A program made the translations under genes and the position numbers. Shown here piece by piece: positions 1 to 17,676 of a DNA stretch of 64,000 nucleotides (position 1 is its first letter; every line of letters starts with the position of its first letter). The notes beneath the pieces were generated by a model, which saw only the letters and a list, made by a program, of their open reading frames with translations, was not told the DNA's origin and searched no databases. Source of the DNA: a virus; the IMG/VR virus record IMGVR_UViG_3300045988_082442, positions 128,001 to 192,000 of that record, one strand, 5' to 3'.

Positions 1-73
1 TAAAAATGTTCAGTAAGATGTTAATAAGAATGTAAGTAAGTTTTCTGGTATCTTGATAAAAACCAGAATATAT

Positions 74-146
74 CTCCTTATGGTGTAATAGGCAAACACG
101 CTACTGAGTGGTGGTAGAATTATAGGTTCGAGCCCTGTTGGGGAGG
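74..146 (+). tRNA. tRNA-like gene with non-canonical anticodon loop (GUG/His if read at standard positions)
   Basis: Hand fold: acceptor CTCCTTA/TGGGGAG (two G-U), D arm GTGT-AATAGGCAA-ACAC, T arm ATAGG-TTCGAGC-CCTGT, anticodon stem CTACT/GGTAG. The loop GAGTGGT lacks U33. Confidence 0.5.
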
Positions 147-272
147 ATAAATTCTATATATAGAATAATGTGTTACGCAGTATCTGTATTATAAGGTGAC
201 AAGTACACAGGACGCTGTGGAGGGTTTCAATTCCTGGTAGTTGATTAGGTCTACAAAATACAGATATAATAT

Positions 273-344
273 CAGGTGGTAGTTGATAGGAAAACACTTC
301 TACTAATGTATGAAGAGATGCTGGTTCGAATCCAGCCCTCCTGA
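273..344 (+). tRNA. tRNA-like gene, degenerate (possible pseudo-tRNA)
   Basis: Canonical T arm GCTGG-TTCGAAT-CCAGC. Acceptor CAGGTGG/CCTCCTG has one T-T mismatch. D loop contains GG. Anticodon arm pairs only 3-4 bp (CTTC..GAAG) around an 11-nt loop. Confidence 0.35.
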
Positions 345-357
345 CCTTTTCAAAAAT

Positions 358-443
358 GCAAGTATATCTCAACGGCAGAGCAGCCTCCAGTTGGGGGTGA
401 AAAGTAGCATACGATTGTGTAGGTTCGAATCCTACTACTTGCA
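358..443 (+). tRNA. class II (long variable arm) tRNA-like gene, anticodon arm non-canonical
   Basis: Perfect acceptor GCAAGTA/TACTTGC, T arm GTAGG-TTCGAAT-CCTAC, D loop AACGGCA, variable-arm hairpin GTA-GCA-TAC. The anticodon region GCCTCCAGTTGGGGGT folds as 6 bp with a 4-nt loop rather than 5 bp with a 7-nt loop. No encoded CCA. Confidence 0.5.
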
Positions 444-446
444 ACC

Positions 447-489
447 TAAAAATGACACAGATGTAAAAGAATATATTCATAGGTTATAT
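447..489 (+). ncRNA. candidate tRNA-flanked guide RNA: orphan 3' half of the CRISPR repeat (447-469) plus a 20-nt unique sequence (470-489)
   Basis: TAAAAATGACACAGATGTAAAAG matches the last ~21 nt of the array repeats. It starts 4 nt after the tRNA-like gene ending at 443. The 20 nt AATATATTCATAGGTTATAT that follow abut the 5' end of tRNA-Trp at 490. Confidence 0.45.
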
Positions 490-564
490 AGGAGCTTGGT
501 GTCAATGGTAGCACGACAGTCTCCAAAACTGTGAGTGAGAGTTCAAATCTTTCAGCTCCTGCCA
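490..564 (+). tRNA. tRNA-Trp (anticodon CCA), CCA end encoded
   Basis: Acceptor AGGAGCT/AGCTCCT, D arm GTGT-CAATGGTA-GCAC, anticodon stem ACAGT/ACTGT with loop CTCCAAA, T arm GAGAG-TTCAAAT-CTTTC, discriminator G then CCA. Confidence 0.9.
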
Positions 565-778
565 ACATATCAATAATTCTAAATAAAATAAAAATAATCA
601 GATTGGGTTTGGTACACCTGTAAGTTTGGGTATAGATATGGTCCTAAAAGGTCAGTCTTGATTATGCACAGAGATGTGCTGGCGAACGGTGAATTATTGA
701 TATAAACAGATTGGATTATAACCTCTATAAGTTCAAGATAGAATGGGCTTGAAATACAATCTGTCAGTAATTTAATAT
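565..778 (+). ncRNA. candidate tracrRNA-like RNA between two tRNAs (anti-repeat at about 608-641)
   Basis: No ORF. 613-622 TACACCTGTA is the exact reverse complement of repeat bases TACAGGTGTA. Ungapped extension pairs about 23 of 30 positions with array-1 repeat 1. A repeat-like ATGCACAGAGATGTGC hairpin lies at 663-680. Confidence 0.35.
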
Positions 779-864
779 GGGTAGTTGGGTGAGTGGCTAA
801 AACCATCAGACTGTAAATCTGACCTCATTTGAGTTCCCTAGTTCGAATCTAGGACTACCCACCA
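779..864 (+). tRNA. tRNA-Tyr (anticodon GTA), class II, CCA end encoded
   Basis: Acceptor GGGTAGT/ACTACCC, anticodon stem TCAGA/TCTGA with loop CTGTAAA, variable-arm hairpin CTC-ATTT-GAG, T arm CCTAG-TTCGAAT-CTAGG, A then CCA. Confidence 0.9.
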
Positions 865-870
865 GTAAAA

Positions 871-910
871 GGGCAATTTTACAGCCCTTGCAGGAAACTG
901 TGAACTGTGT
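871..910 (+). promoter_or_regulatory. conserved double-hairpin leader motif, copy A
   Basis: GGGCAATTTTACAGCCC TT GCAGGAAACTGT GAACTGTGT. It lies 9 nt upstream of the first repeat of array 1. Related copies are at 3019, 13279 and 17196. Confidence 0.7.
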
Positions 911-919
911 ATTCTGATA

Positions 920-1144
920 TTTTTATAGCTATATGAAATAATACAGGTGTAAAAGTGTTCTAACTGTTTTAGAGTATAATCGTTTGTTTTACAGATATAT
1001 GAAATAACACAGGTGTAAAAGCTAGACTGTAAATCTGGTCTCATTTGAGTTACTTTGTAGTTATATGAAATAGCACAGATGTAAAATTGGATAATATGTT
1101 CTGAATTGTTTTATAGCTATACAGAAATGACATGGATGTAAGAG
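920..1144 (+). CRISPR. CRISPR array 1: four 36-37-nt repeats, three spacers (30, 30, 20 nt)
   Basis: Repeats at 920-955, 986-1021, 1052-1087 and 1108-1144, with a 66-nt period for the first three. Consensus is GTTTTATAGCTATATGAAATAACACAGGTGTAAAAG. Spacers are unique. The array is 57 nt upstream of the RuvC nuclease gene on the same strand. Confidence 0.8.
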
Positions 1145-1201
1145 TTACGGCTAGGTATAGACATCAATAGTGATAAATAATTTATTTGGGGGTTAAAAAA
1201 A

Positions 1202-3007
1202 ATGAAAAGAAAAGAGTTAAACGAAGGAGTTCACTGTGTAGAATATGCTTTAATGCACATACCAGATGAATATAAGGAATTGTTAGAAAGACAATATAAT
1301 TATATGGAAGATTTCAAGAATGGCTTTATTAGTTATATGTGGAGATATATTTCAAAGCAACGAAAGGAAAACGAAGAATTTGATAAAGCCATGGCTGAAG
1401 TTAGATACTTAAATACAAAGGAAGGAAGAATTATAAAGAAGGATGAACGCTCTAATAGACTAAGTAAAGCATATACAACAATAGGTAATTTTGTAAAAGA
1501 AACAAAGTTATTAGATTCTGGAAGTAGACGAAAAGAATACTACAGTACAGTAAAAAATGTTTATTATGCTTGGATACCAGATGATAGTAGGTCTTATGCA
1601 ATAGATGATGTTTTATCAGCATTTGAAGTATTCTTCTTTGATAGGGGTAAAGCAGTATTCCAAAAGAAATATGGTCATACAAAAATATTACAATTTAAAC
1701 CAGCATACAGTAGAATGAAGAGTACTGGTGAAATCAATACAATAGTACAAACACCTAGCAGAGTTGTATTTGAAAATGGAAATCCTTATTTTGAAATGTG
1801 GGATTTAAGAGATTTAAAAGATATACCAGAAGAAGAATGTCAAAAAGGTAAAAGACATAGTAAGATAAGATTTAGAATGTATTGTAATGATAAAGATGAG
1901 TTACAAAGTTATATAAAAACAAACCCATACATAGGTGGAACTAAGTTATTAAGATACTGGAAGAAGGGAAAATGGAGATATAGAGTTCAATTAAACTTTG
2001 AAGCAATATCACCAGCAGTAAAACAAATGAGCAACGAAGAGCATATAATGGGAATAGACTTAGGTACAGAAACAATAGCTTGGGTAAGAGATGATGGAGA
2101 ACAAGCAATATGGGAGTTATCACCAGATACACCAAGGGTAACAGAAGAAATAAAGGAAATAGATGTATATTTAGATAATTCAAGAAGGGCTATGAATCCA
2201 GAATTATTTAGGGAAGATGGTACTAGAATAAGTAATAGGGAAGCTAGGGAATTAGGATTAGAAGAAAAGCATTCAAAAAGATATATAAAAGCAGCAGCAA
2301 GAAGAAAAGAATGTTTTAGATATTTAGGAGAAAAAAGAAAACTAAATAACAGAATCCTAGCTAAAAAGTTATTTGAATTAGGTAATGAGTTTCATATAGA
2401 AAATAATAAGGTTTCATCTTGGATGTTAAAAAGATGTCACATGGCTCTTAAAACAGCAATGAAATATGCTTCTGGAGCAAGAGCAAGTGATTATGGGAAA
2501 GTTGTAGCAGATAGAGCCCCAGGAATGATAGATGCAAGATTATCTCAATTAGCAGGACAAAAAGGACTTTCATACCATAAAATTGAGAAGATAGAAGGTT
2601 TTAAATGCACAGAATATAATCATTTTACGGATAAGAATGATTTATTCCAATATCTAAATGACAGAATTGTAGTATTAGATGTTGACAGTGTAAATGATGT
2701 CTATAAAGAGTTTATTACTGATTTTGGTGATACAATTACTGATTTAAAAATAGACGGAAAAGACATAATACTACAAAGAGATTTATATGCAGCAGCAAAA
2801 TTAGTTTATTGCACACCATATAAAGAAACTATTGTGAATAGTAAAGGTAGAAAGGTAGAAGTAACAAGATATAAATTTGATAGAGAAGGGTTTAGCAAAT
2901 TCTTTGTTGAGAAATTTTATCCAAAACATTTAGAGTATATAATGAATCTAAGGGCTGAGTTAGCTAATGGTAAGAAGCTAAGTGGTACTGTATTTGGTAA
3001 TATTTAA
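1202..3007 (+). CDS. TnpB-like RuvC nuclease; candidate miniature type V (Cas12-like) CRISPR effector, 601 aa
   Basis: RuvC-I HIMGIDLGTE (about nt 2050), RuvC-II FHIENNKV (about nt 2399) and RuvC-III ILQRDLYAAAKL (about nt 2780) occur in TnpB/Cas12 order. About 280 aa precede RuvC-I. The zinc-ribbon cysteines are absent. RBS GGGGG. A CRISPR array is adjacent. Confidence 0.75.
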   Translation: MKRKELNEGVHCVEYALMHIPDEYKELLERQYNYMEDFKNGFISYMWRYISKQRKENEEFDKAMAEVRYLNTKEGRIIKKDERSNRLSKAYTTIGNFVKETKLLDSGSRRKEYYSTVKNVYYAWIPDDSRSYAIDDVLSAFEVFFFDRGKAVFQKKYGHTKILQFKPAYSRMKSTGEINTIVQTPSRVVFENGNPYFEMWDLRDLKDIPEEECQKGKRHSKIRFRMYCNDKDELQSYIKTNPYIGGTKLLRYWKKGKWRYRVQLNFEAISPAVKQMSNEEHIMGIDLGTETIAWVRDDGEQAIWELSPDTPRVTEEIKEIDVYLDNSRRAMNPELFREDGTRISNREARELGLEEKHSKRYIKAAARRKECFRYLGEKRKLNNRILAKKLFELGNEFHIENNKVSSWMLKRCHMALKTAMKYASGARASDYGKVVADRAPGMIDARLSQLAGQKGLSYHKIEKIEGFKCTEYNHFTDKNDLFQYLNDRIVVLDVDSVNDVYKEFITDFGDTITDLKIDGKDIILQRDLYAAAKLVYCTPYKETIVNSKGRKVEVTRYKFDREGFSKFFVEKFYPKHLEYIMNLRAELANGKKLSGTVFGNI

Positions 3008-3018
3008 TATAAATTATA

Positions 3019-3053
3019 GGGTAATTTTACAGCCCTTGCAGGAAACTGCAAAT
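3019..3053 (+). promoter_or_regulatory. conserved double-hairpin leader motif, copy B
   Basis: GGGTAATTTTACAGCCC TT GCAGGAAACTGC AAAT, 12 nt after the effector stop codon. Confidence 0.7.
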
Positions 3054-3062
3054 AAAATATCA

Positions 3063-3089
3063 TTTTAAAGCTCTATGATATTGTAAAAG
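3063..3089 (+). repeat. degenerate, internally deleted CRISPR repeat
   Basis: TTTTAAAGCTCTATGATATTGTAAAAG keeps the repeat's 5' TTTTAnAGCT and 3' TGTAAAAG ends. It lies 10 nt after leader copy B and is followed by hairpin AAACTGAT-TTAAA-ATCAGTTT (3090-3110). Confidence 0.45.
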
Positions 3090-3157
3090 AAACTGATTTA
3101 AAAATCAGTTTGTATATTCTTTTTATATTTTTTGAATATTTTTTCATTTTAATTTCT

Positions 3158-3191
3158 TTCTATAGCTATTTAAAATACTATAGATATAGAG
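3158..3191 (+). repeat. degenerate CRISPR repeat copy
   Basis: TTCTATAGCTATTTAAAATACTATAGATATAGAG matches 25 of 34 positions of array-2 repeat 6 without gaps. About 37 nt of unique sequence follow, then the terminator. Confidence 0.5.
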
Positions 3192-3228
3192 TTAAAGACA
3201 TCCTATATACAAAGAAATATTCTAATTT

Positions 3229-3254
3229 AAAGGCAGAGAAATCTGCCTTTTTAA
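3229..3254 (+). terminator. intrinsic terminator closing the tRNA-CRISPR-effector unit
   Basis: AAGGCAGA-GAAA-TCTGCCTT followed by TTTTT. Confidence 0.8.
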
Positions 3255-3269
3255 TTTATTAAAAAATGC

Positions 3270-3298
3270 TTGACAAAATTTAAAACTTATACTATACT
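3270..3298 (+). promoter_or_regulatory. sigma-70-like promoter (family consensus)
   Basis: TTGACA, 17 nt, TATACT, within AAAAATGCTTGACAAAATTTAAAACTTATAC. Confidence 0.7.
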
Positions 3299-3338
3299 TA
3301 TTATAATAAGATGTTAATATATAGGAGGGGTGATTATA

Positions 3339-3797
3339 ATGACAAATGATTTAATAATTAGAAAAATAAATAATATTGATATATACGATTTAGAAGATGA
3401 GCAGATATTTGAATTAAAAGATACAATAGTTAAAAATGTAAATTTAAAACAGTTAAGAGAATCAGTAAATAAAGCAGTCTTAAATTTATCAGGGGTTGGG
3501 GACCCTACTTGGAATGCAGACTTAAACTTCATAGCATTAGATAACCAGAAAAGATTAAATATAGTCTATATGCTTATAAGCAATTTGGAGATGTTTGAAA
3601 TTAGTGTTTCTAATATCAAGAAGAATAAATATGGTTGTGCAATGGATTCAGAACAGTCATTGAGATTTTTAGGAATAACAAAAGATTTAGTAGATACAGT
3701 CATCAAGTTTGGAGAGTTTAAAATAGATGAAGCATACCAGAATAAGCTAGAACTAGAAGAAAACAAGAGATTAGAATTAGAAGGAGGGAATAACTAA
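3339..3797 (+). CDS. hypothetical protein
   Basis: ORF-track frame. ATG at 3339 lies 8 nt after GGAGGGG and is preferred over the GTG at 3330. Confidence 0.7.
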   Translation: MTNDLIIRKINNIDIYDLEDEQIFELKDTIVKNVNLKQLRESVNKAVLNLSGVGDPTWNADLNFIALDNQKRLNIVYMLISNLEMFEISVSNIKKNKYGCAMDSEQSLRFLGITKDLVDTVIKFGEFKIDEAYQNKLELEENKRLELEGGNN

Positions 3798-3808
3798 TAG
3801 AACCAGAT

Positions 3809-3925
3809 ATGAAGAAGTTAGATTATGCTTACAAAGAAAATCAAAGAAAGAAGAATGTTAAAGAATATCAAGATAAGTTCTTTAAGAAAATAACAAAGAA
3901 TAAATACCAAGGAAAGAGGGTGTAA
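3809..3925 (+). CDS. small basic hypothetical protein (38 aa)
   Basis: An ATG..TAA ORF fills the gap between neighbouring genes. It is below the ORF-track length cutoff. Confidence 0.3.
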   Translation: MKKLDYAYKENQRKKNVKEYQDKFFKKITKNKYQGKRV

Positions 3926-3927
3926 AT

Positions 3928-4146
3928 ATGCAGACATTGAATAAAATATTAAAATTAAAAGAAGATACTTATAATAAACTATTACAATCAGGAATTACAG
4001 TTGATTTAGCAAAGCAAGCATCTGAACTAACATATCAAATAAATGTATTAAGTGCAACACCAGAAGATTTAAAGAATGATGCTAATCTAAAAGCAGAATT
4101 TGAAAGATTTTGTAGGGAGGCACAAAATGATGAAAATAGGGGATAG
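3928..4146 (+). CDS. hypothetical protein
   Basis: ORF track; RBS AGAGGG upstream. Confidence 0.6.
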   Translation: MQTLNKILKLKEDTYNKLLQSGITVDLAKQASELTYQINVLSATPEDLKNDANLKAEFERFCREAQNDENRG

Positions 4147-4312
4147 AATAATATCAGTAAGAACAGGTGAAACTGGTACTGTTGTTACAGGACCAGAAGA
4201 GATACTAGGTATAATAAATTACGGTATTGAGTTTGATAACCCAGAAGCAAGAAAGTTATTCAATCCATTTTATGTACCAGAAGAATTATTAGTAAGTTTA
4301 AAAGAATATTAG
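4127..4312 (+). CDS. hypothetical protein
   Basis: ORF-track frame. ATG at 4127 follows GGGAGG and overlaps the end of the previous gene. Confidence 0.55.
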   Translation: MMKIGDRIISVRTGETGTVVTGPEEILGIINYGIEFDNPEARKLFNPFYVPEELLVSLKEY

Positions 4313-4325
4313 GGGGGGTATTGTT

Positions 4326-4703
4326 ATGATAATAGAAACAACATTTAATGATAATGATTTCACACATATATTAGATGAATATTGGAGTAGGTTTAGATTT
4401 GTAAATTATTACTATGGACTAGATAGAATAGAAGACCCAGCAGTATATAGAGATGCAAGAATAGATATGGAAAGCTTAATTGAAAAAGCAGTGTATAATG
4501 ATTTAGACCAAGAAGAATCAAAAAGGTTTTTATTATATATTAAAACCAGCATATTGGAATTTATAAAGGATAACTATCGAGATGATTATATATATTTAAG
4601 TGATAATTTTAAAGTTGCAATTAAGAAGTCAGTAGAAGATAAAAATTATAATGGAGAAATAGTATATTATTTCTTAACTAATAATGTATATATAACTATG
4701 TAG
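4326..4703 (+). CDS. hypothetical protein
   Basis: ORF track; GGGGGG RBS upstream. Confidence 0.65.
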   Translation: MIIETTFNDNDFTHILDEYWSRFRFVNYYYGLDRIEDPAVYRDARIDMESLIEKAVYNDLDQEESKRFLLYIKTSILEFIKDNYRDDYIYLSDNFKVAIKKSVEDKNYNGEIVYYFLTNNVYITM

Positions 4704-4743
4704 ATGTTATACTTATTAGATAAATAATATTGGAGGTAGAAAA

Positions 4744-5916
4744 GTGAATTTATTAGATAGTGTAGAAATTCAGAAATTAGAAGAGGATATAAAAAGATAT
4801 GCAAAAGCGTACTACGAGGGAAAAGCTCAAATCTCTGACTATGAGTTCGACAAACTTACAGATAGATTAAGAGATTTAAAACCAGACTCAACTGTATTAA
4901 GAACACCGGGATGGGGATATGAACAAACTGGTACAAAAGTAAAACATAAATATCAAATAGTTAAAAGTTTGGATAAGTGCAGAACATTTGATGAAATTCC
5001 AGAAAGATTTACAAATAAATCAGTAGCATTATCACCAAAACTAGATGGTCTTACAGGTGTATTCTATTATAAAAATGGTAGACTTATAAAAGCAATAACA
5101 AGAGGAAATGGAACAGAAGGCAAGGATATTACAGATAAAGCAAGACTAATAGTAGGTAATGAAATATTAGATAAGAACTTTACAGGTGGTGTTAGAGGTG
5201 AACTTGAAATTTCTAATACTAACTGGGAAATAATAAAGAGCAAATACCCAGAAGCTAAGAATGCAAGGAACTTATGTGCAGGTTGGATAAATTCAAAAGA
5301 CTATAATCCAGATGAAATAAAAATGATAGATTTTATTACTTATAAGGTAACTGGACAAGAAAGAGAAGAAGGAAAAGAAGATATATTTTATGATTTATCA
5401 AAAGTAGATAATATTGGTGAGATATGCTTTAATAGCAATCCAACTAAGTTTAATGTTATAGACTGGCTATCATATAACTTTAAAAATACAATACCAAAGG
5501 TACAAGCAACATTAACAAGAGATGGGTTTCAAGAATTTATGCAAAAGGTATTTACTGAATTTAAAACAAGTGATAGATATAATTTAGATTACGAACTAGA
5601 TGGTATTGTTATATCTGATATAGATGTAATATATCATAGAGCAGAAAATTCATATATTTATGATGAGTGTGCCTTTAAATTTGCAGCTGAATCTGCTGAG
5701 GCTAAGGTTACAGGAATTACTTGGAATATGACAAGAACACAAAGATTAGTTCCCATTGTTCAGTTTGAACCTGTATTTTTATCTGGTGCTGTTTTACAAA
5801 ATGCTACTGGACACAATGCAAAGTTTATATTAGATAATGAAATAAAAATTGGTTCTACTATTGAGATTTGCAGAAGTAATGAAGTAATTCCTTATATAAA
5901 GAAGGTAGTTGATTAA
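4744..5916 (+). CDS. ligA: NAD-dependent DNA ligase, N-terminal fragment (Ia, adenylation and OB domains)
   Basis: LigA Ia-like YYEGKAQISDYEFDKL, adenylation motif I SPKLDGLTG, and ELDGIVISD. The fragment ends where an OB domain would end. GTG start after GGAGG. Confidence 0.8.
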   Translation: MNLLDSVEIQKLEEDIKRYAKAYYEGKAQISDYEFDKLTDRLRDLKPDSTVLRTPGWGYEQTGTKVKHKYQIVKSLDKCRTFDEIPERFTNKSVALSPKLDGLTGVFYYKNGRLIKAITRGNGTEGKDITDKARLIVGNEILDKNFTGGVRGELEISNTNWEIIKSKYPEAKNARNLCAGWINSKDYNPDEIKMIDFITYKVTGQEREEGKEDIFYDLSKVDNIGEICFNSNPTKFNVIDWLSYNFKNTIPKVQATLTRDGFQEFMQKVFTEFKTSDRYNLDYELDGIVISDIDVIYHRAENSYIYDECAFKFAAESAEAKVTGITWNMTRTQRLVPIVQFEPVFLSGAVLQNATGHNAKFILDNEIKIGSTIEICRSNEVIPYIKKVVD

Positions 5917-5917
5917 T

Positions 5918-6679
5918 ATGTATGGTTATATCTATTTAGTGCATGACAGTCTAAATAATAGACATTATATAGGACAACACAAATGGACAAAGTATGAATT
6001 ATTAGACGAAGATTACACAAGAGGGTCTGAAAAAGCATTTAGAGATTCCCATGGATTTGATTTATTTAAGATAGACCCAAATTATTTAGGTTCAGGAAAA
6101 CATTTACAAAATGCAATTAAAAAATATGGTAAGAATTATTTTTATATACAAGATATACTTGATATTGCAGAAACAAAACAGGAGTTGAATAAAAAAGAGA
6201 AAGAATGTATTAGACATTATAAATATGTATTAGGTTATAATCTATACAATATTAGTGAGGGTGGTGATGGAGGATATACTGGTAAAGATATTAGTGGTAA
6301 GAATAACCCAATGTATGGAAAACATCATACAGAAGAAACTAAACAGAAATTAAGAGAAATTATGAAATCTAAGGATTTTGAATATTTTAAAACAGACCCT
6401 AGATTTAGACATTATGGCAAAGATAATGGAATGTATGGTAAAAATCATACTGAAGAATCAAAGGAGAGAAACAGGAAAAAACATTTAGGAAAGAAAGTAT
6501 CTGATGAAACAAGAAATAAAATGAGAAAATCACATAACCCAAATAATATGCCCCCAAATCTACAAGGATATAGAGGAATGAATAATGGAATAATATATAC
6601 AAAAATACCACCAGATAAAATAGATAAATACTTGAGTGATGGTTGGAAGTTTGGAAGAATTAAAAAGGAGGATAAATAA
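5918..6679 (+). CDS. GIY-YIG homing endonuclease with NUMOD3-like repeats
   Basis: YGYIYLV..HYIGQH (GIY..YIG), YNISEGG, and two GK(N/D)NxMYGKxHTEE repeats. It sits between the two ligase fragments with overlapping stop and start codons. Confidence 0.8.
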   Translation: MYGYIYLVHDSLNNRHYIGQHKWTKYELLDEDYTRGSEKAFRDSHGFDLFKIDPNYLGSGKHLQNAIKKYGKNYFYIQDILDIAETKQELNKKEKECIRHYKYVLGYNLYNISEGGDGGYTGKDISGKNNPMYGKHHTEETKQKLREIMKSKDFEYFKTDPRFRHYGKDNGMYGKNHTEESKERNRKKHLGKKVSDETRNKMRKSHNPNNMPPNLQGYRGMNNGIIYTKIPPDKIDKYLSDGWKFGRIKKEDK

Positions 6680-7566
6680 TGAATAGATGTGTAAATTTAG
6701 AAGAGAGTGAATATTTACCTACACAATGCCCAGCCTGTGGACATAATTTGGAGTGGGTTGGTGTTGATTTAAAATGTGTAAACACAGAATGTCCACATAT
6801 AGCAGAGAGTGATTTGGAACAGTGGTGTACTATTGTAGGAGAAACAGATGGGTTAGCATGGGTAACAATGAAGCAATATTTAGATAAATTCAATATACAT
6901 AATACAGATGATTTATATAAGAATATAAATACAATGATAGCTACATTACAAGGTGGTAATGCTTCTATAACAGATAAAAAGATTGTAGAGTTTCTAAATA
7001 AGTTATATAAAGATATGATACCAGTAGAAAAAGCATTGATGGGATTAAATATACCAAGATTAAGTGAACAGACAGCAAAATTATTAAATAAAGAGAAAGA
7101 GTTAGTACATGATTTAATGACAATAGGTTCTCAATATACTACTGTAAAGGATAGAGATATGATTTCTATTCCAGATACATTAAAGAATAAACTATTAGGA
7201 TTAGTTAAAGAAGCAACAACAGAATCTATATTAAGTAATTTAGGAAAGTTGAACACACTACATTATTTATATGAACAAGATACACCTAGAATTATATTCA
7301 ATGACAATACTGATGAAATTATAAAGGTTGCTGTTACTGGCTCATTAGAGAGTATGAAAAGAAGTGCTTTTGAGAAGTATATACAAAGTTATGGATATGA
7401 ATTATCTAGTAGTATTAAATCTTGTAAATATTTAATAACTAATAATCCGAACAGTGGTTCAAGCAAGAATAAAGATGCCCAAAAATATGGTGTTGAAATC
7501 ATAACTGAAAAAGAATTTTTAGATAAATTAGGTAAGGTAACTACTAAATCTAATACATTGTTTTAA
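6679..7566 (+). CDS. ligA: NAD-dependent DNA ligase, C-terminal fragment (Zn finger, HhH, BRCT)
   Basis: CPACGHNL..CVNTECPH zinc-finger motif. BRCT-like VAVTGSL...YLITNNPNSGSSKNKDAQKYGVEIITEKEF. The ATG overlaps the TAA of the endonuclease gene. Confidence 0.8.
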   Translation: MNRCVNLEESEYLPTQCPACGHNLEWVGVDLKCVNTECPHIAESDLEQWCTIVGETDGLAWVTMKQYLDKFNIHNTDDLYKNINTMIATLQGGNASITDKKIVEFLNKLYKDMIPVEKALMGLNIPRLSEQTAKLLNKEKELVHDLMTIGSQYTTVKDRDMISIPDTLKNKLLGLVKEATTESILSNLGKLNTLHYLYEQDTPRIIFNDNTDEIIKVAVTGSLESMKRSAFEKYIQSYGYELSSSIKSCKYLITNNPNSGSSKNKDAQKYGVEIITEKEFLDKLGKVTTKSNTLF

Positions 7567-7576
7567 GGTATAAAGA

Positions 7577-7625
7577 GGGTTTTTACAAATTTATAACAAT
7601 TTTATAACAAATTTTGTAAAAACCC
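7577..7625 (+). terminator. long hairpin after ligA whose 3' arm abuts the next -35 box
   Basis: GGGTTTTTACAAA..TTTGTAAAAACCC. The loop carries the direct repeat TTTATAACAA twice. Confidence 0.55.
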
Positions 7626-7654
7626 TTGACATTTTTTAAAACTTATAATAATAT
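7626..7654 (+). promoter_or_regulatory. sigma-70-like promoter (family)
   Basis: TTGACA, 17 nt, TAATAT. Confidence 0.6.
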
Positions 7655-7681
7655 AAGCAAAGAGGTAGGAGGTGTAACACA

Positions 7682-10432
7682 ATGGGAAATTTATTTAATT
7701 TATTGAACAATCCACCTAAAAGTGAGTTACCAAAGTATTTGAAAGGAATTACAAAATCAGTTGATATTGAAAACTGTAGAACAATGGTAAATACATTTGT
7801 AGAAGGAGTTAATTTTACAGGGGATAAGTTAATTCAATATTGTATATCAAATAACATACCTTATTTTACAAGAGGTGAATATGATGTATTTACACTAGAA
7901 GAAGTTGAATATATAATAAATGATTTGAATACATTAAAAGCTTTAGAACTCGTTTTTGATGATTTTAAAAAGAAATTTCCAAAAAGACATATAGATATGT
8001 CATTAGAACAGTTTAAGAAGAAACTGTTAAAACTAGATTTAATAAAAGATGGAGAGGAGTTGAACAAATATATGAGGTACACAAATGATACAGTAGAGTA
8101 TGTCAGAAGATTAGGTACAGAACATACAATAGAAGAATGTTTGGAAATAATAAAAGTAGACAAACCTGAATTATCAATGACAGCAGATAGACTAAATGAG
8201 ATGAAGGATAGATACTTAATCAAATTTGTTAAAGATGAGGGGATGTTTACAGAATCACAGATTGAAATGATAAAAGTATTAGCAAGAACAGAAACAGTCA
8301 AAAATACATATTTAAGAATGAGAGAGTTATATGGAATACCATGTGGATACTTAGAGTTTATTGAACAAATAAGTAGATTAAAGGCATTATCAATATATAA
8401 CATTGGTACTATAACTACACATTTAACACCATTTGAAGAAGCATATATAGAGGAATTATTAGTTTCAGAAGATAGTAATGCTGTACTATATTCTAAATTT
8501 AATAAAGCATTTCCTAATAAATATCAATATCTACAATTTGTGAAATATTTAAACGAAATTAAAACATCAAAATACAGTAATAATGAAAGCACAAACAATG
8601 ATAAATATAAAGATTTAGAAAAACTTTTAGAATCATTTAAAGGGGAAAAGACAATACAAGAATGTTTAGATGAAGCACAGAAAGATGAAAGATTTAAAGA
8701 TTGTAATTATAAATCTATTTACAACTTTATACACAGAAGAAATATACCATTTAAACAAGCAAAAAAAGGAAGAGTAGCAGGTACAAAGAATATAGATAAA
8801 AAGGATAAGACAGTATCAAGAGCTAAGGGCAGAAAGAGCATACTAGATGATATTTATGATGATTTAGTTGAAACTTTAAGTAGGGTATCAATACCAAAAA
8901 CAATTATAGAATTAAAAGAAAGATATCCAGAGAAAGCAGATAGATTAAGTTATGGTTTAATAATGCACTATGCAAAAAATCATAATATTAAAACTAAAAA
9001 GGAGACACCAGAGGAAAGACAAGATAGAATGAATAAGATGAGAGGCATAAGGGGAACAAAGAAACAGGAACAGACACAATCAAAAGATGGTAAAGTAGAT
9101 GGTAGACAAGAATTGTCTAATAAGATTTATGATGACTTAAAATCATTGTGTAAAGATTATACAAAAATGGAATGCTTAAATATTATTCGTAAGAAATACA
9201 ATGTAGACTATACTGAGACTTATATACCAAATCTAATGAATAGAAAAGGAAAACTAAAATTTAAAGTATATACAGAGTTTACAGATGATATGAAAAAGAC
9301 AATAAGTGAATTAGAAGGAACAGTAGGAAATAAGGTAAATTTATATAGGAAATTTGCAAAAGTATATCCAGGTGCTGTGTCATTAAGACAATTTTGTAAT
9401 ATGTATAATGACATGGAAAAGGCATCAGAGGAAGATACAATACATAATACAGATACTATTGGGGTATCTGCAGATGAAATTGAAAGTAAACCTATTGTAG
9501 AACCAGTTACAGAACATATAGATACAATACCAGTTAAGGAAGAAGAGCATACTGAATTTGTTGAATCAATCCAACAAAAACAACCAGTACCTGTGGAAAA
9601 ATATCAACCAATAATAGATGAGGTAAATGCAACATTTGAAAGAAAATGTAGACAGTTAGGAGTATCAGAAGATACACATCAACATACAGATGAAATCATA
9701 AAAGCATTAGGTACTATTATACAATATGCAGATAGCAAGAAACTAAACAGAATATTAAATGACCATGAAGATATATTAGAGCAATATAGAAGAGAAGTGG
9801 AACATGAAATTGAAATAGAACCTTGGTCAGATGGTGATTCTTATTGTCATAATAAATTAAAAGCAATAGGAATGAGAAGAAGAGAAGTTAAATATGCTAG
9901 AGATGACATTAATGTAATGAAAGAATTACTTGACAATATAAATACTAATATTGAACTTTATAAAAAGACATTAGAAGATTTAGAGGAGAAAAAGTTACAA
10001 AGAGAGAACTCAATATTTATTCCATTGGTGGATTCATCAATGGTAGACAGACTAGATTGGTGTAAACATGCATCTTTAAGAAGCAAAAGAGCTTATACCC
10101 CAATACTAACAACTAATGCAAAGGAAGATAGAATAAAAAGATATAAAGCACAAGGAGACAGAGATTTATGGGTAGAAAAAGAACAGACACAACCTGTATT
10201 TCAAGATAATGTAAGTAAGTCAAATAAAAATTCCCATTTAAAATCAACATATAGAGTTAAGGCAGAATTTATGGTTTTAAAAGGAAACCCTTTTGTAAAT
10301 AAATATTATGATGTTGTAACAACTAATGAAGATTTAGCAAAGGACAAAGCAATAGAGTATTTTGACTTAATAAGCTCAAATAATAATAATGCAAAATATC
10401 AAATAGTATCTGTAACAAGATTAAATAGATAA
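7682..10432 (+). CDS. large hypothetical protein (916 aa) with repeated short helical modules
   Basis: ORF track; GGAGG RBS. Segments of the form ECL(E/D/N)..K...Y.....N recur at least four times. No catalytic motif recognised. Confidence 0.7.
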   Translation: MGNLFNLLNNPPKSELPKYLKGITKSVDIENCRTMVNTFVEGVNFTGDKLIQYCISNNIPYFTRGEYDVFTLEEVEYIINDLNTLKALELVFDDFKKKFPKRHIDMSLEQFKKKLLKLDLIKDGEELNKYMRYTNDTVEYVRRLGTEHTIEECLEIIKVDKPELSMTADRLNEMKDRYLIKFVKDEGMFTESQIEMIKVLARTETVKNTYLRMRELYGIPCGYLEFIEQISRLKALSIYNIGTITTHLTPFEEAYIEELLVSEDSNAVLYSKFNKAFPNKYQYLQFVKYLNEIKTSKYSNNESTNNDKYKDLEKLLESFKGEKTIQECLDEAQKDERFKDCNYKSIYNFIHRRNIPFKQAKKGRVAGTKNIDKKDKTVSRAKGRKSILDDIYDDLVETLSRVSIPKTIIELKERYPEKADRLSYGLIMHYAKNHNIKTKKETPEERQDRMNKMRGIRGTKKQEQTQSKDGKVDGRQELSNKIYDDLKSLCKDYTKMECLNIIRKKYNVDYTETYIPNLMNRKGKLKFKVYTEFTDDMKKTISELEGTVGNKVNLYRKFAKVYPGAVSLRQFCNMYNDMEKASEEDTIHNTDTIGVSADEIESKPIVEPVTEHIDTIPVKEEEHTEFVESIQQKQPVPVEKYQPIIDEVNATFERKCRQLGVSEDTHQHTDEIIKALGTIIQYADSKKLNRILNDHEDILEQYRREVEHEIEIEPWSDGDSYCHNKLKAIGMRRREVKYARDDINVMKELLDNINTNIELYKKTLEDLEEKKLQRENSIFIPLVDSSMVDRLDWCKHASLRSKRAYTPILTTNAKEDRIKRYKAQGDRDLWVEKEQTQPVFQDNVSKSNKNSHLKSTYRVKAEFMVLKGNPFVNKYYDVVTTNEDLAKDKAIEYFDLISSNNNNAKYQIVSVTRLNR

Positions 10433-10438
10433 TGTGAA

Positions 10439-10476
10439 TACATCTAACAGTACATATTTGTTAGATGTATATTTTA
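10439..10476 (+). terminator. intrinsic terminator
   Basis: TACATCTAAC..GTTAGATGTA followed by ATTTTAT. Confidence 0.6.
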
Positions 10477-10494
10477 TATATAGGAGGATTTAAT

Positions 10495-11289
10495 ATGGGA
10501 ATAGATTATAAAACAATAAGTCATGAATTACCAGACAATTTATTATGGCTGGAAGATAGAACAATATTACTAACAAAGGCAGGTTCATACATATATGGGA
10601 CAAACATAGAAACATCAGATACAGACTATAAAGGTGTTTGTATCCCACCAAAAGAATATTATTTAGGTTTAAAATCAATAAATGAATATAATAAATCTGG
10701 TGGTAAAAACTTTGGTGAAAGAAATACCAAAGATGATATAGATATAGTTGTATGTCATATAAATAAGTTTGTAAGAGATGCTATGAATGGTATTCCAAAT
10801 AATTTAGATATACTATTTTGTAGAGATGAGGATGTAATTTATATGGATGATTTTGGTAAGGAGTTAAGAGATTTTAGACATGAGTTCTTATCAAAAGAAG
10901 TATTCAAAAAGTTCTCAGGTTACGCTTTATCACAAAAACATAAAATAGAGACTAAAAAGAATCATGGAACTGGAAGAAGAGAATTAGTAGAAGAATTTGG
11001 GTATGACTGTAAATTTGCTTATCATGCTGTAAGACTAATATTAGGTGCAACAGAAATATTAGAAACACATGATTATCATTCATATAGACCAGAAAGGGAA
11101 TGGTTAGTAGAAATAAGAAAAGGTAAATATACACTAGAAGAAATATTTGATATAATAGAAGATTTAGATGCAAAACTAAAAAGTGCTTATGAAACAAGTA
11201 CATTAAGAGAAAAACCAGATTATCATAAAATAAATAAATGGCTAATAGGTTTAAATGAAAGAGCATTGAATTATGACTTTAAAAGGTAG
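10495..11289 (+). CDS. RlaP-like (RNA-repair-associated, pol-beta-fold) nucleotidyltransferase
   Basis: AGSYIYGTNIETSDTDYKGVCIPP resembles the GS..YG....SD.D..G signature of this family. ATG at 10495 after AGGAGG. Confidence 0.55.
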   Translation: MGIDYKTISHELPDNLLWLEDRTILLTKAGSYIYGTNIETSDTDYKGVCIPPKEYYLGLKSINEYNKSGGKNFGERNTKDDIDIVVCHINKFVRDAMNGIPNNLDILFCRDEDVIYMDDFGKELRDFRHEFLSKEVFKKFSGYALSQKHKIETKKNHGTGRRELVEEFGYDCKFAYHAVRLILGATEILETHDYHSYRPEREWLVEIRKGKYTLEEIFDIIEDLDAKLKSAYETSTLREKPDYHKINKWLIGLNERALNYDFKR

Positions 11290-11297
11290 TCAGCTGC

Positions 11298-11324
11298 CGT
11301 CAGGATTCCCTAGAAATGATTTTA
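11298..11324 (+). repeat. GC-rich conserved intergenic element, copy 1
   Basis: CGTCAGGATTCCCTAGAAATGATTTT is identical to 56975-57000 except for one base. Confidence 0.6.
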
Positions 11325-11388
11325 AATGTTTAGACATAAAATTATAAGGTTGTAAATAAAATAGTCTTAAATATTGTTCAAAAAATGC

Positions 11389-11417
11389 TTGACAAAACTT
11401 AAAACTTATAGTATATT
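11389..11417 (+). promoter_or_regulatory. sigma-70-like promoter (family)
   Basis: AAAATGCTTGACAAAACTTAAAACTTATAG then TATATT. Confidence 0.65.
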
Positions 11418-11445
11418 TATAGAAACGAAGGGAGATGGGTTTTAA

Positions 11446-12213
11446 ATGGGAAATTCAAGAATAAAAACATTAAGTGATAGAATGAAAGATTATGAGTTAG
11501 CATCTGATTACAGACTAACAAAGAAAACACCTGTAATAGTGAGAATAGATGGTAAATCATTTCACACCTTTACAAAAGGATTAGATAAACCTTTTGATAG
11601 TATATTATCAGAAGCAATGAACTATGTTTGTAGAAAATTAGTAGAAACAGTACAGGGCTGTAAGTTTGCATATACACAATCAGATGAGATAAGTTTATTA
11701 TTAACAGATTGGGATAAATCAACAACAGATTGTTATTTTGATTATAGGGTACAGAAAATGGTATCAGTATTAGCTTCAGCAGCAACTATGTATTTTAATC
11801 AGTATATAGTATCAAGAGTTTTATACTGGCAAAAAGGAGAGTCAGAATTATCAGAAAAGTTATTTGATAAATGGGCTGCAAAAGCTGGTTGTGCAATGTT
11901 TGATGCAAGAGCATATAATTTGCCAAAAGAAGAAGTATGTAATTACTTTATATGGAGACAAGAAGATGCAAGCAGAAATTCTATACAGTCATTAGGCAGA
12001 AGTAGATTTTCATTTAAGCAAATGTTAAATAAAAAGAACAATGAAGTACAAGATATGCTGTTTAATGAATATGGTATAAATTGGAATCGTATAGATACTA
12101 AATGGAAAAGAGGATTTGCAGTATGTAGAGATAAAGATGGTATAAAATCAGACTTTGAGATACCATTATTTAAAAAAGATAGAGCATTTATAGACAAATA
12201 TCTTATAGTATAA
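11446..12213 (+). CDS. Thg1-like protein (tRNA 3'-5' nucleotidyltransferase / tRNA-His guanylyltransferase family)
   Basis: VIVRIDGKSFHTFTKG and YTQSDEISLLL match the two conserved Thg1 catalytic segments. The size (255 aa) fits. Confidence 0.7.
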   Translation: MGNSRIKTLSDRMKDYELASDYRLTKKTPVIVRIDGKSFHTFTKGLDKPFDSILSEAMNYVCRKLVETVQGCKFAYTQSDEISLLLTDWDKSTTDCYFDYRVQKMVSVLASAATMYFNQYIVSRVLYWQKGESELSEKLFDKWAAKAGCAMFDARAYNLPKEEVCNYFIWRQEDASRNSIQSLGRSRFSFKQMLNKKNNEVQDMLFNEYGINWNRIDTKWKRGFAVCRDKDGIKSDFEIPLFKKDRAFIDKYLIV

Positions 12214-12242
12214 GATGTTTATAATGATGAAAGGATATAAAA

Positions 12243-12392
12243 ATGTTTATATGTGATAAATGTAGAACTTGTAGTAAGTTTCCATTTTGCACAGTAACAG
12301 AGAGTAAAGATGGAAATTGTGGTGAATATTCCAAAAGAAATATTTACAAGTTTATAGAAGATAAATTAAAAGATATTGAGAATAAGAGGTAG
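12243..12392 (+). CDS. small Cys-rich protein (49 aa)
   Basis: ATG..TAG ORF with CDKCRTC..C..C; fills a gap; below the track cutoff. Confidence 0.35.
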   Translation: MFICDKCRTCSKFPFCTVTESKDGNCGEYSKRNIYKFIEDKLKDIENKR

Positions 12393-12395
12393 AAC

Positions 12396-13013
12396 ATGCT
12401 TGAATTAGAGTTATATGGACGTTGTTATAAAAAGAATAACAATATAAAAATAAATAAAGGTATTACAGTTTTAACTGGACCAAATGGGTGTGGTAAATCT
12501 TATGCTTGTCAGCAAATAAGAGATTACCTAAAAGAAAATAATAAGAAAGTATATTTTGTAGATGTATATTCAGAGGGTAAAACTATATCACAACAATATT
12601 TAGAATATGGAGATATGGAATCATTAGCAAAGCATACAGTAGCATCAGAAGGTCAAAGAGTATTTGATACACTTATAGATAATCATGCATCAAAATTAGG
12701 GGAATTTGTTAGACAACTAATAGATAATAACCTAAAAGAAGGATATATAATTATAGATGGTGCTGATAGTGGTGTTAGTATTGATTTAATGATGTCATTG
12801 AGAAGTTTATTTAGTATGATAGAAGAGGATTGTGTAGACAGTGGAATAGATATATACATAATTATAACTTCAAATAGTTTTGAATTATGTAGAAATTACG
12901 ACTGTATCTGGATACCTACAATGGAACATTATAAAAGAGGAGATGAAGCAGATGCCTATGATTTGTGGAGACACCAATATGAAAAAATCTACAAAGAAAG
13001 AAACAAGAAATAA
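12396..13013 (+). CDS. P-loop ATPase (ABC/AAA-like, small)
   Basis: Walker A GPNGCGKS and Walker-B-like YIIIDGADSG. Confidence 0.65.
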   Translation: MLELELYGRCYKKNNNIKINKGITVLTGPNGCGKSYACQQIRDYLKENNKKVYFVDVYSEGKTISQQYLEYGDMESLAKHTVASEGQRVFDTLIDNHASKLGEFVRQLIDNNLKEGYIIIDGADSGVSIDLMMSLRSLFSMIEEDCVDSGIDIYIIITSNSFELCRNYDCIWIPTMEHYKRGDEADAYDLWRHQYEKIYKERNKK

Positions 13014-13269
13014 GATTGTAGAAGAATATAAAAGAATATACAGTAGAAAGTATAGAAGAGCTCATTATAAGAGTAAATGGGTATTACAATCTGGTAATCA
13101 ACTAGCAGAAGAAGATTTTAAATCTTGGTGTCAAGAATCAAAAGTTATAATGAGAAAGCATAAAGTTGGATTAATTACTGATGATGATATGTTGGGGTAT
13201 ATAAATAAATGGATAGAACAAGATGTTAAGATAAAAGAAGAAATAGATATACTTGCTTTGAGCAAGTAA
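12978..13269 (+). CDS. basic hypothetical protein
   Basis: ORF-track frame 12880-13269. ATG at 12978 after GGAGA is preferred. It overlaps the end of the ATPase gene. Confidence 0.5.
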
Positions 13270-13278
13270 TAGATATAA

Positions 13279-13315
13279 GGGTAATTTTATAACCCTTGCA
13301 GGAAACTGCGAACTA
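13279..13315 (+). promoter_or_regulatory. conserved double-hairpin leader motif, copy C
   Basis: GGGTAATTTTATAACCC TT GCAGGAAACTGC GAACT, 10 nt after a stop codon. Confidence 0.7.
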
Positions 13316-13334
13316 TTTTTAATAGATATAAAAG
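13316..13334 (+). repeat. strongly truncated CRISPR-repeat remnant
   Basis: TTTTTAATAGATATAAAAG keeps the repeat's 5' end and its terminal AAAG. It is followed by the palindrome AAAAGCTTTT and a T-run. Confidence 0.3.
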
Positions 13335-13390
13335 CTTTTTTCGATACCCCAATTTATAAGATAAATAAAACAGAATAGAGGTAGGAAGTT

Positions 13391-15859: not shown

Positions 15860-15860
15860 T

Positions 15861-16076: not shown

Positions 16077-16078
16077 AA

Positions 16079-16258: not shown

Positions 16259-16275
16259 TACAGAGGAGTGATATT

Positions 16276-17186: not shown

Positions 17187-17195
17187 TAAATATAA

Positions 17196-17235
17196 GGATA
17201 ATTTTACAATCCTTACAGGAAACTGTGAACTGTGT
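17196..17235 (+). promoter_or_regulatory. conserved double-hairpin leader motif, copy D
   Basis: GGATAATTTTACAATCC TT ACAGGAAACTGT GAACTGTGT, 8 nt upstream of array 2. Both stems carry compensatory changes relative to copies A-C. Confidence 0.75.
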
Positions 17236-17243
17236 AATTTAAT

Positions 17244-17665
17244 ATCCTATAGCTATATAAAATGACACAGATGTGAAAGTATTGCAACATTAAAATACCC
17301 TATTTTTGGGGTTTTATGGCTATATAAAATAACACAGATGTGAAAGAGGGATTTTGTTTTGTTAGCATTTATTTCTGTTTTATAGCTATATAAAATGACA
17401 CAGATGTGAAAGTCTGGAACAAATCTTGAAAAGTCCAGCTTTGTTTTATGGCTATATAAAATAACACAGGTGTGAAATAATTCAAAGTATTGTTCAAATA
17501 GTTTCTGTGTTTTATAGTTATATAAAATGACACAGATGTGAAAGGAATACTAAAATAAAGTAGCAATTGAGCTAGTTCTATAGCTATATAAAATGACACA
17601 GATATGAAAGTTAAGCTCATGAATGATAGCAACAATAGTTTTATAGATATATAAGAAGCAGAAAG
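17244..17665 (+). CRISPR. CRISPR array 2: seven repeats (last one degenerate), six spacers of 27-31 nt
   Basis: Repeats at 17244, 17311, 17377, 17443, 17509, 17575 and 17638, with a 66-67-nt period. Consensus is GTTTTATAGCTATATAAAATGACACAGATGTGAAAG (36 nt). All spacers are unique. Confidence 0.9.
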
Positions 17666-17676
17666 GAGAAAATTAA

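Follow-up and report, generated by a model that had tools for sequence, protein, structure and literature searches.

What use does a large gut phage have for a TnpB-like gene that lies beside its tRNA genes and is flanked by short arrays of repeats? The question is raised by a 64,000-nucleotide stretch of viral DNA (positions 128,001 to 192,000 of IMG/VR record IMGVR_UViG_3300045988_082442), here called the window, which is part of a 213,644-bp metagenomic scaffold (ENA ERZ28663717, ZEEV15-1_SAMEA3664998 scaffold_17); for this phage, the DNA covered was the 64-kb window and 8.8 kb upstream of it. Close to its start, the window encodes a protein of 601 amino acids (aa) that an earlier note on this DNA had taken for the effector of a CRISPR locus. 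In our view the locus is likely to be a functional CRISPR system of class 2, type V-like and encoded by the phage. A single effector with a split RuvC domain, the conserved adjacency of effector and arrays, and variable spacers with foreign matches are the features that place it with type V.

The effector gene (1202..3007, + strand) encodes a TnpB-derived, Cas12-like protein. The earlier note had seen in its open reading frame (ORF) three RuvC segments in the order found in TnpB and Cas12, and no CxxC..CxxC zinc ribbon between the second and the third. Both observations stood: the motifs GIDLG (residues 284-288), HIENN (398-402) and QRDLYAAAKL (525-534) are canonical and hold the putative catalytic residues D286, E400 and D527, and there is no CxxC..CxxC in the sequence. 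Searches with the protein sequence gave little. Pfam returned no match, including PF07282 (Cas12f1-like_TNB) and OrfB_IS605; sequence and profile searches of the PDB found no meaningful match, including the entries for Cas12f, Cas12m, CasPhi and CasLambda; the NCBIfam model guided_TnpB scored 17 bits against a cut-off of 100; and PHROG 506 ('transposase') matched at 3e-11. An AlphaFold (AF2) model built from an alignment of 58 sequences reached a predicted local distance difference test score (pLDDT) of 89.8 and a predicted template modelling (TM) score of 0.85, with disorder only at residues 492-514; it superseded a first model from nine sequences, in which the RuvC half was poor (pLDDT 63.9). 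The structure prediction that the earlier note had proposed as a check thus gave a RuvC-bearing TnpB/Cas12 fold: all 41 Foldseek hits in the PDB at E <= 1e-3 belong to the TnpB/Cas12/Fanzor/TranC superfamily, Cas12f, Cas12m and Cas12p included. The best was AsCas12f (E 4.6e-11, TMt 0.63); ISDra2 TnpB gave TMt 0.61-0.65 and Cas12m2 TM 0.48/0.49 over the full length, and CasLambda was a weak match (E 6.5e-4 to 7e-5, TM 0.19-0.31), below TnpB. Structural hits in BFVD were TnpB-like 'transposases'. Identity in the structural alignments to Cas12f and Cas12m is 9-14% (10% for Cas12m). As modelled, then, the protein has the fold of the TnpB/Cas12 RNA-guided nucleases.

Are the repeats beside this gene a CRISPR array? 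Array A (920..1144, + strand) has repeats at 920-955, 986-1021, 1052-1087 and 1108-1144, the last of them degenerate and 37 nt long, and a gap of 57 nt with a GGGGG ribosome-binding site separates it from the ATG of the effector gene. Four repeats of 36-37 nt at this distance were described in the earlier note and are confirmed; of its three unique spacers of 30, 30 and 20 nt, only the two 30-nt ones (956-985 and 1022-1051, + strand) are true spacers. The 20-nt piece (1088-1107, + strand) is kept at 19 of 20 positions at the end of the upstream array of the related phage locus L001 (9888-9907), the effector of which is only 51% identical, and L008 and L009 are near-identical to the window over the degenerate fourth repeat and onward to the start codon; the piece and the fourth repeat are therefore together a fixed array terminus rather than an acquired spacer, which leaves array A with two true spacers. 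(L-numbers designate the phage loci or contigs compared, namely L001, L005, L007-L010, L015, L016, L018 and L024; L010 includes the 8.8 kb upstream of the window.) A repeat core of 25 nt is present five times in the window and in none of 100 shuffles. The decisive observation comes from close relatives, a comparison that the earlier note had suggested. In L008 and L009, which come from other samples, the effector is 99% identical and the flanks are near-identical, and the spacers are completely different; between L015 and L016 the effector is identical and leader and repeats are the same, and both upstream spacers differ. Because spacers are swapped between near-identical phages, the repeats form a true CRISPR array.

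The association of effector and arrays extends across a family of phages. Every homologue with 34-56% identity, found on other phage contigs that reach 195-199 kb, has arrays of period 66 (36-nt repeats, 30-nt spacers) beside it, usually on both sides of the gene, and more arrays lie among tRNA genes elsewhere. The window, L001, L005, L007, L015/16/18 and L024 all have flanking arrays or leader-repeat units at the gene, and the position of the effector gene between the tRNA region and the DNA ligase gene is constant in divergent phages. The phage of the window has at least five arrays: two in the upstream DNA (L010 5858-5959 and 6899-7124), array A, a decayed array C, and array B. Array C (3056..3228, + strand) consists of degenerate repeat-like units and follows a second copy of the two-hairpin leader (3018..3050, + strand) that begins directly past the effector stop codon; in L008 this region has one extra 53-nt unit, and in L001 and L015 the same position holds an intact array. 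An intrinsic terminator (3229..3256, + strand; hairpin 3229-3250, then a T run), the only terminator-like site within 600-3500, closes the unit. The earlier note had rightly placed a strong terminator at 3229-3254, but what it ends is not a plain 3' untranslated region, since about 3056-3228 is leader and decayed array. Array B lies farther away, at 17193..17673 with its leader (+ strand; array proper 17244-17673), and has seven repeats of the same family, the last degenerate, and six spacers. At 13272..13330 (+ strand) an orphan leader copy is followed by a repeat remnant only, directly upstream of an 822-aa ORF (13391-15859), and looks like a decayed array whose leader survives. Among the sequences compared, the effector is fixed in a clade of gut phages of about 200 kb and is always flanked by mini-arrays there. 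The arrays themselves are not static. The downstream array of L016 (8393-8626) consists of the first unit of one L015 array and the last units of another (L015 11881-13113), and a 173-aa gene between the two L015 arrays is deleted in the fusion; thus, recombination between dispersed arrays reshapes these genomes.

What do the spacers match? Spacer 2 of array A (1022..1051, + strand) has a contiguous 28-nt core that is exact in four GTDB genomes, CAMPBS01, JAGAED01, CAMNMV01 and CANRHX01, all of them metagenome-assembled genomes (MAGs) of low-GC Clostridia. Over its full length it agrees with the chromosomal tRNA-Tyr gene of these four MAGs at 29 of 30 positions and with the tRNA-Tyr gene of the phage itself at 26 of 30, the phage copy being mismatched at spacer positions 1, 2, 17 and 18. 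In the MAGs the match sits in a tRNA-Met/tRNA-Tyr pair amid housekeeping genes (cytidylate kinase, acyltransferase, peptidase M16 and an AMP-binding enzyme). The phage tRNA-Tyr(GTA) (779..864, + strand; called by ARAGORN, Rfam tRNA 58.6 bits) is a diverged copy of this bacterial tRNA, with 76 of 86 positions identical and the differences at stem positions. We considered whether spacer 2 is a drifted copy of the phage tRNA and rejected this, as the bacterial gene is closer and its 3' anticodon-stem arm is the one matched. Alternatively, the spacer may stem from an element with its attachment site in the tRNA-Tyr anticodon loop, where it integrates; the bacterial gene is matched regardless. Since spacer 2 has the sense of the tRNA, its guide would pair with the DNA only and not with the tRNA. 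The second match is that of a spacer from a sister array (L010 5894-5923), which is found at 30 of 30 positions in a 132-kb metagenomic contig (GC 24.9% over 4.4 kb), antisense to codons 34-44 of a 512-aa ORF. This ORF has a weak match to replication proteins (phrog_702 1.7e-5; G2P C-terminal 0.006), and a homologue with 72% identity is part of a compact module, made up of helix-turn-helix regulators and small ORFs with serine recombinases at its end, next to chromosomal AhpC, which identifies the module as an integrative element. GC is 25-29% in the targets and 29.3% in the phage. Both protospacers are preceded by CCR (TTTTCCA| and AAAACCG|); relative to transcription they are on opposite strands, consistent with targeting of DNA rather than RNA. 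The earlier note had proposed competitors or the host as the opponents of the system, and these protospacers lend the idea direct support: one is in a bacterial tRNA-Tyr gene and the other in a replication-protein gene with homologues in an integrative element. Further searches gave nothing comparable: 11 spacers of the phage had only chance-level hits in INPHARED (E = 5) and none in PLSDB, 19 spacers from related phages had none in INPHARED, exact-pattern scans of IMG/VR with the phage's own spacers had none, and a comparison of all 56 spacers with the window and the related phage loci, in which as many as 7 mismatches were allowed, returned the tRNA-Tyr similarity only.

How might a guide RNA be formed from such arrays? 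The leader of array A (870..919, + strand, 50 nt) consists of a first hairpin (870-888), a second hairpin (889-902) capped by a GAAA loop, and a tail (903-919) whose bases complement the repeat. Its conservation, claimed in the earlier note, is borne out by the motif AATTTTACAGCCCTTGCAGGAAACTG at 875-900 and its further copies at 3023, 13283 and 17200, with none expected by chance and no match in 100 shuffles. Among 17 leaders from 6 phages, all with two adjacent hairpins and mostly a GNRA-type loop in the second, 93.9% of cells in the hairpins are paired and 8 of 10 pairs change on both sides (slid controls, at most 60% paired). Many of the pairs are G-U, possible only on the + strand, and therefore the structure is one of RNA. 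The leader had also been considered as a sigma-70 promoter, a candidate discarded because it has no credible -35/-10 pair and because the G-U covariation indicates RNA. Repeat positions 17-28 have their complement in the leader tail (AAYTRTGTAATTT), and across lineages tail and repeat change together (CTGTGT/ACACAG, ATATGTAATTT/AAATTACATA, CTATGTTAAA/TTTAACATAG and ATGTAAAAT/ATTTTACAT), with 83% of cells paired, four covarying pairs and 37-47% in slid controls; the pairing was spotted by eye before the statistics, which are thus supportive rather than conclusive. An unconstrained minimum-free-energy fold of the leader of array B with its first repeat has the same pairing. The repeat is in addition an imperfect palindrome (positions 2-13 with 24-35): in 50 distinct repeats, 85% of cells in this hairpin are paired and 34 cells are changed on both sides, with 28-62% in slid controls. 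A search with a repeat hidden Markov model (HMM) for an anti-repeat on the opposite strand, as in a trans-activating CRISPR RNA (tracrRNA), found none; every leader has a same-strand anti-repeat of 10-12 nt with covariation. Judged from these patterns, the leader tail could be tracr-like. The Rfam scan of 1-18000 reported tRNAs only, with no CRISPR direct-repeat family (CRISPR-DR) or other known family.

From which lineage does the effector come? A word-indexed search returned only 8 homologues; an exhaustive search with a family profile returned 1078 relatives, comprising about 32 close clusters and more than 1000 distant ones of roughly 500 aa. These distant relatives match guided_TnpB at 1e-24 to 3e-8 and, by profile, structures of TnpB, TranC and 'Transposase', and one of them (P0039) lies directly downstream of a Y1 TnpA. 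Aligned by hhalign, the effector family and the ~500-aa TnpB branch agree with a probability of 100% (E 2.6e-59, 488 columns). The CxxC..CxxC zinc finger is absent from both alike, with an S-x-Y-N-H segment in its place, and both have the RuvC-III motif QRDLY(A/S)A; an insertion at about 488-524 and a C-terminal beta-hairpin with a helix are specific to the effector. The effector descends from a zinc-finger-less IS200/IS605 TnpB branch of about 500-580 aa. Altae-Tran et al. 2023 (PMC10691335) report about 50 origins of Cas12 from TnpB, as well as loss of the zinc finger in some of the large TnpB branches. The earlier note had called the protein an undescribed or intermediate lineage. The first part fits the lack of a Pfam or PDB sequence match and the 17 bits against guided_TnpB; the second is not supported, since the zinc ribbon is missing from family and branch alike and its loss is therefore ancestral to the branch, that is, inherited and not transitional.

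The effector also does not sort with named groups. It lacks the Cas12f1-like TNB domain, CxxC motifs and sequence similarity to known Cas12f that would mark subtype V-F; its likeness to Cas12m of subtype V-M is structural only, and the D-E-D of the window protein is intact rather than impaired; it has no sequence or strong structural similarity to CasPhi or CasLambda (V-J/V-L); and it does not pass the curated family models for IS200/IS605 TnpB, with which homology is real but distant. In sequence terms, the effector is a member of none of the named subtypes and would represent a new lineage of phage-encoded, adaptation-less type V systems. IMG/VR holds a single locus of the family. The family was not found in the accessible literature, and it may sit among the unnamed V-U variants of large surveys, whose sequence tables were not compared.

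An alternative to DNA cleavage, which we regard as unlikely, is RNA-guided binding without cutting, as in Cas12m or the TnpB-derived TldR repressors: the protein would stay on the DNA that it recognises and obstruct transcription or replication, whereby the phage would silence the host tRNA-Tyr gene and the rival replication gene. Cas12m2 is among the best structural matches over the full length, and the body of a tRNA gene and codons 34-44 of a replication gene are positions that suit a roadblock mechanism. The catalytic residues vary within the family. Among 16 aligned full-length members, seven, the window protein included, have D-E-D, seven have N-D-D (Asn at 286 and Asp at 400: P0005, P0012-P0014, P0016, P0017 and P0019), P0009 has N-R-D and P0020 has H-G-D; the third Asp, that of RuvC-III, is invariant. 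The N-D-D clade may have dead or altered nuclease chemistry. In L024, the sole N-D-D locus looked at, leader-repeat-spacer units are still present, as single units of leader, truncated repeat and spacer that resemble omega-RNA or single-guide units, and the retention of such units where N-D-D has replaced the canonical residues suggests a function without canonical catalysis. However, the window protein and its closest relatives retain all three acidic residues in canonical RuvC motifs, the target strand differs between the two protospacers, and interference by Cas12r, a TnpB-derived effector from the CRISPR system of Thermus Lalka phages, depends on a RuvC aspartate (bioRxiv 10.64898/2026.04.20.719267). 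Separately, in L005, a 195-kb relative, gene calling divides the effector into two overlapping ORFs (10001-11831; 476 and 153 aa), which may reflect a frameshift, a pseudogene or an assembly error.

It is far less probable that the gene is an ordinary transposon TnpB, a selfish cargo that happens to lie beside orphan arrays derived from a host and serving another effector, such as a host Cas9 or Cas12. The repeats, with their length of 36 nt, spacers of 30 nt and GTTTTAG start, resemble those of type II-A, arrays also occur far from the gene (array B is 14 kb away), and the closest relatives without CRISPR are IS605 TnpBs. Nevertheless, the window has no Y1 transposase (TnpA) and no insertion-sequence ends were seen, the gene keeps the same position between the tRNA region and the DNA ligase in divergent phages, and the score against the NCBIfam TnpB model is far from its cut-off. 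Moreover, wherever a locus reaches far enough, the gene is bordered by arrays on both sides, and leader, repeat and effector diverge together across lineages. That the repeats are instead structured regulatory or processing RNA elements with arbitrary linkers, an idea to which the folding of the repeats, the interspersion of arrays with tRNA genes and a half-repeat between two tRNAs (447-469) lend some colour, is largely refuted and scarcely tenable, since linkers are wholly replaced between otherwise identical phages with repeats and flanks fixed, 45 of 56 unique spacers are exactly 30 nt long, and two match foreign DNA at 29/30 and 30/30.

If the locus is a functional type V-like system, where do its spacers come from? 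As the earlier note had stated for Cas1, Cas2 and Cas4 in the 64 kb, no cas1, cas2 or cas4 is present among the 58 ORFs of the window (PADLOC and Pfam HMMs), nor among the called genes of the 8.8 kb upstream. The tight spacer length of 30 nt implies an integrase with a ruler. Because no such integrase was seen in the examined phage DNA and the length is so narrowly kept, Cas1-Cas2 of the host is probably the most economical source, by analogy with the proposal made for Cas12r. The 36+30 geometry and the GTTTTAG start resemble type II-A repeats, which we treat as a lead only.

The mechanism that we propose combines these elements. A single + strand transcription unit, ending at the 3229 terminator, would take in the tRNA cluster and array A together with the effector gene and the decayed array C. 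As is the case in all TnpB/Cas12 systems, the CRISPR RNA (crRNA) would have a 5' handle that derives from the repeat and, 3' of it, the guide. The repeat may fold on itself, and the leader would add its two hairpins and the anti-repeat to repeat positions 17-28, so that leader and first repeat may form a natural single-guide-like scaffold; for the other repeats, the leader may act as a tracr-like RNA. The putative RuvC site D286/E400/D527 would then cut guide-matched DNA, possibly beside a 5'-CCR motif. Its targets would belong to the bacterial host, as does the tRNA-Tyr gene, and to rival mobile elements, as does the replication gene that is assigned to an integrative element. The mismatched phage tRNA-Tyr, 160 nt upstream of the array, may replace the targeted host tRNA-Tyr, and new spacers would probably be inserted by a host Cas1-Cas2 integrase.

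Several points weigh against this proposal. Cleavage, the protospacer-adjacent motif (PAM) and the form of the guide RNA are what we infer from sequence. The replacement of the first two catalytic residues by N and D in about half of the family suggests that nuclease activity is not universal. Only two spacers were matched, and 10 others from the phage and 45 from related phages gave no match. The tRNA-Tyr match has its mismatch at spacer position 2, within what is the PAM-proximal seed in Cas12 enzymes, and the 5'-CCR flank rests on n=2 and is present beside the phage's own tRNA-Tyr as well. At about 10-12 bp, the duplex formed by the anti-repeat is short, and it shares bases with the 3' arm of the hairpin within the repeat, which makes the two structures mutually exclusive. 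Part of the spacer differences between relatives is due to recombination between arrays, as in the L016 fusion, and not to acquisition, and repeats inside one array are several bases apart from each other, an unusual state if the array is actively acquiring spacers. Finally, the search for cas genes spans 64 and 8.8 kb, and adaptation genes are possible in the approximately 140 kb of the scaffold outside these.

The surroundings of the locus are rich in tRNA-related features. Five tRNA genes (73-864), of which tRNA-Tyr is the last, precede the leader of array A. Two of the phage tRNAs, at 273-446, are odd: a tRNA-Ile with the anticodon AAT and a 90-nt tRNA that ARAGORN calls with a 2-nt anticodon, for which the Rfam tRNA score is still 38.7 bits. 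The lone 3' half-repeat at 447-469 (TAAAAATGACACAGATGTAAAAG) stands between the tRNA at 357-446 and tRNA-Trp (490-564) and is followed by about 20 nt and then the tRNA. If RNase P and RNase Z trimmed the tRNAs on either side, an RNA of crRNA size would be freed, and the unit may be a natural counterpart of engineered tRNA-gRNA arrays, or else a relic. A tRNA repair and maturation cluster (10465-15859) near the tRNA and array region includes RlaP (10465-11289) and Thg1 (11446-12213), and the RNA ligase, AAA_33 and Metallophos domains of the window are probably in the 822-aa ORF, by analogy with a 751-aa protein of L005; the cluster suggests that the phage is engaged in a tRNA-centred conflict. 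Downstream of the terminator, a strong sigma-70-like promoter (3270-3298) would serve the next operon. The NAD-dependent DNA ligase gene beyond it is split (4744-7566) into a 390-aa adenylation/OB part and a 295-aa BRCT part, with a 256-aa GIY-YIG/NUMOD3 homing-endonuclease ORF between the two; in L001 the ligase is one ORF of 670 aa.

The source of the window is a phage of about 214 kb from the human gut, and its genes for a T4-like portal, a tail sheath, a T4-type RNA ligase, Thg1 and RlaP mark it as a jumbo phage. Positions 1-8000 of the window had no megablast match among INPHARED phages, and thus the phage has no sequenced isolate relative. One ORF of the window has a type I dockerin domain (Pfam 2.1e-6) and another a pectate-lyase-like adhesive domain, which hints at a host among the cellulosome-bearing Clostridia and is consistent with the MAGs matched by the tRNA-Tyr spacer.

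How does the system compare with those already known? Its closest counterpart is Cas12r, which is likewise phage-encoded and stems from a TnpB branch not earlier tied to arrays (bioRxiv 10.64898/2026.04.20.719267). The two share short arrays with degenerate repeats, the lack of phage adaptation genes, spacers that vary between close relatives and are directed against host integrative elements, and the involvement of host tRNA genes in the conflict. However, Cas12r comes from another, thermophile-specific TnpB branch and has 29-bp repeats, a single array downstream of the gene, and crRNA only, with no tracr-like RNA reported; the system of the window has at least five dispersed arrays, structured leaders, 36-nt repeats and no zinc finger, resides in a ~214-kb gut phage, and has a spacer that matches a tRNA gene itself. 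Cas12f and Cas12m are the best structural matches, and Cas12m2 is of about equal length, but there is no sequence-level match to solved members, and the window effector is without the zinc finger and without a Cas12f1-like_TNB match; Cas12m, moreover, is mostly plasmid-borne and does not cut DNA. With the zinc-finger-less IS200/IS605 TnpB branch the effector shares homology over the full length, the SxYNH segment and the QRDLY(A/S)A motif. In contrast to P0039 of that branch, which lies beside its Y1 TnpA and has a GC-rich 3' region free of repeats and without likeness to leader or repeat, the window gene is single-copy, syntenic and array-flanked and has no TnpA.

CasPhi and CasLambda are compact single-effector type V systems of huge phages without adaptation modules; Al-Shayeb et al. 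reportedly proposed, in 2020 and 2022, competitors or host genes as their targets. They are larger than the window effector (Cas12j and Cas12l, ~700-800 aa); CasLambda is a weak structural match, and CasPhi has no entry among the structural matches listed. The type I-F CRISPR system of ICP1 directed against the PLE satellite is also a phage CRISPR whose spacers hit an integrated, host-resident element, but it is a multi-subunit class 1 system with adaptation genes of its own. By analogy, the system of the window would be of the same kind in function as CasPhi, CasLambda and, above all, Cas12r. Distinctive are its zinc-finger-less lineage, its many dispersed arrays, the anti-repeat leader, and the pairing of a tRNA-gene spacer with a phage copy of the tRNA.

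A bolder reading, which we offer tentatively, is that the locus represents an undescribed type V subtype in which a tracr-like leader scaffold before each mini-array is combined with takeover of the host through tRNA-Tyr and with attack on the replication gene of a satellite-like element. If that is the case, the dispersed mini-arrays would represent, in living form, the step between a single omega-RNA and a CRISPR array, and the phage would cut or silence the tRNA-Tyr gene of its host while supplying an immune, stem-recoded tRNA-Tyr from beside the array.

The system adds to the jumbo phages of the human gut what appears, from its sequence, to be a compact, 601-aa, zinc-finger-less and active lineage of RNA-guided nucleases, and its effector is a candidate for a small genome-editing enzyme. 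Its traceable TnpB ancestor makes it a further, datable case of TnpB turning into Cas12, and the structured anti-repeat leader before every array makes the splitting of an omega-RNA into scaffold and repeat testable. The rep-gene match points to a conflict between phages and integrative elements in gut Clostridia, and the tRNA-Tyr spacer, together with the mismatched phage tRNA-Tyr, suggests that one role of phage tRNAs is to replace a host gene that the phage itself targets.

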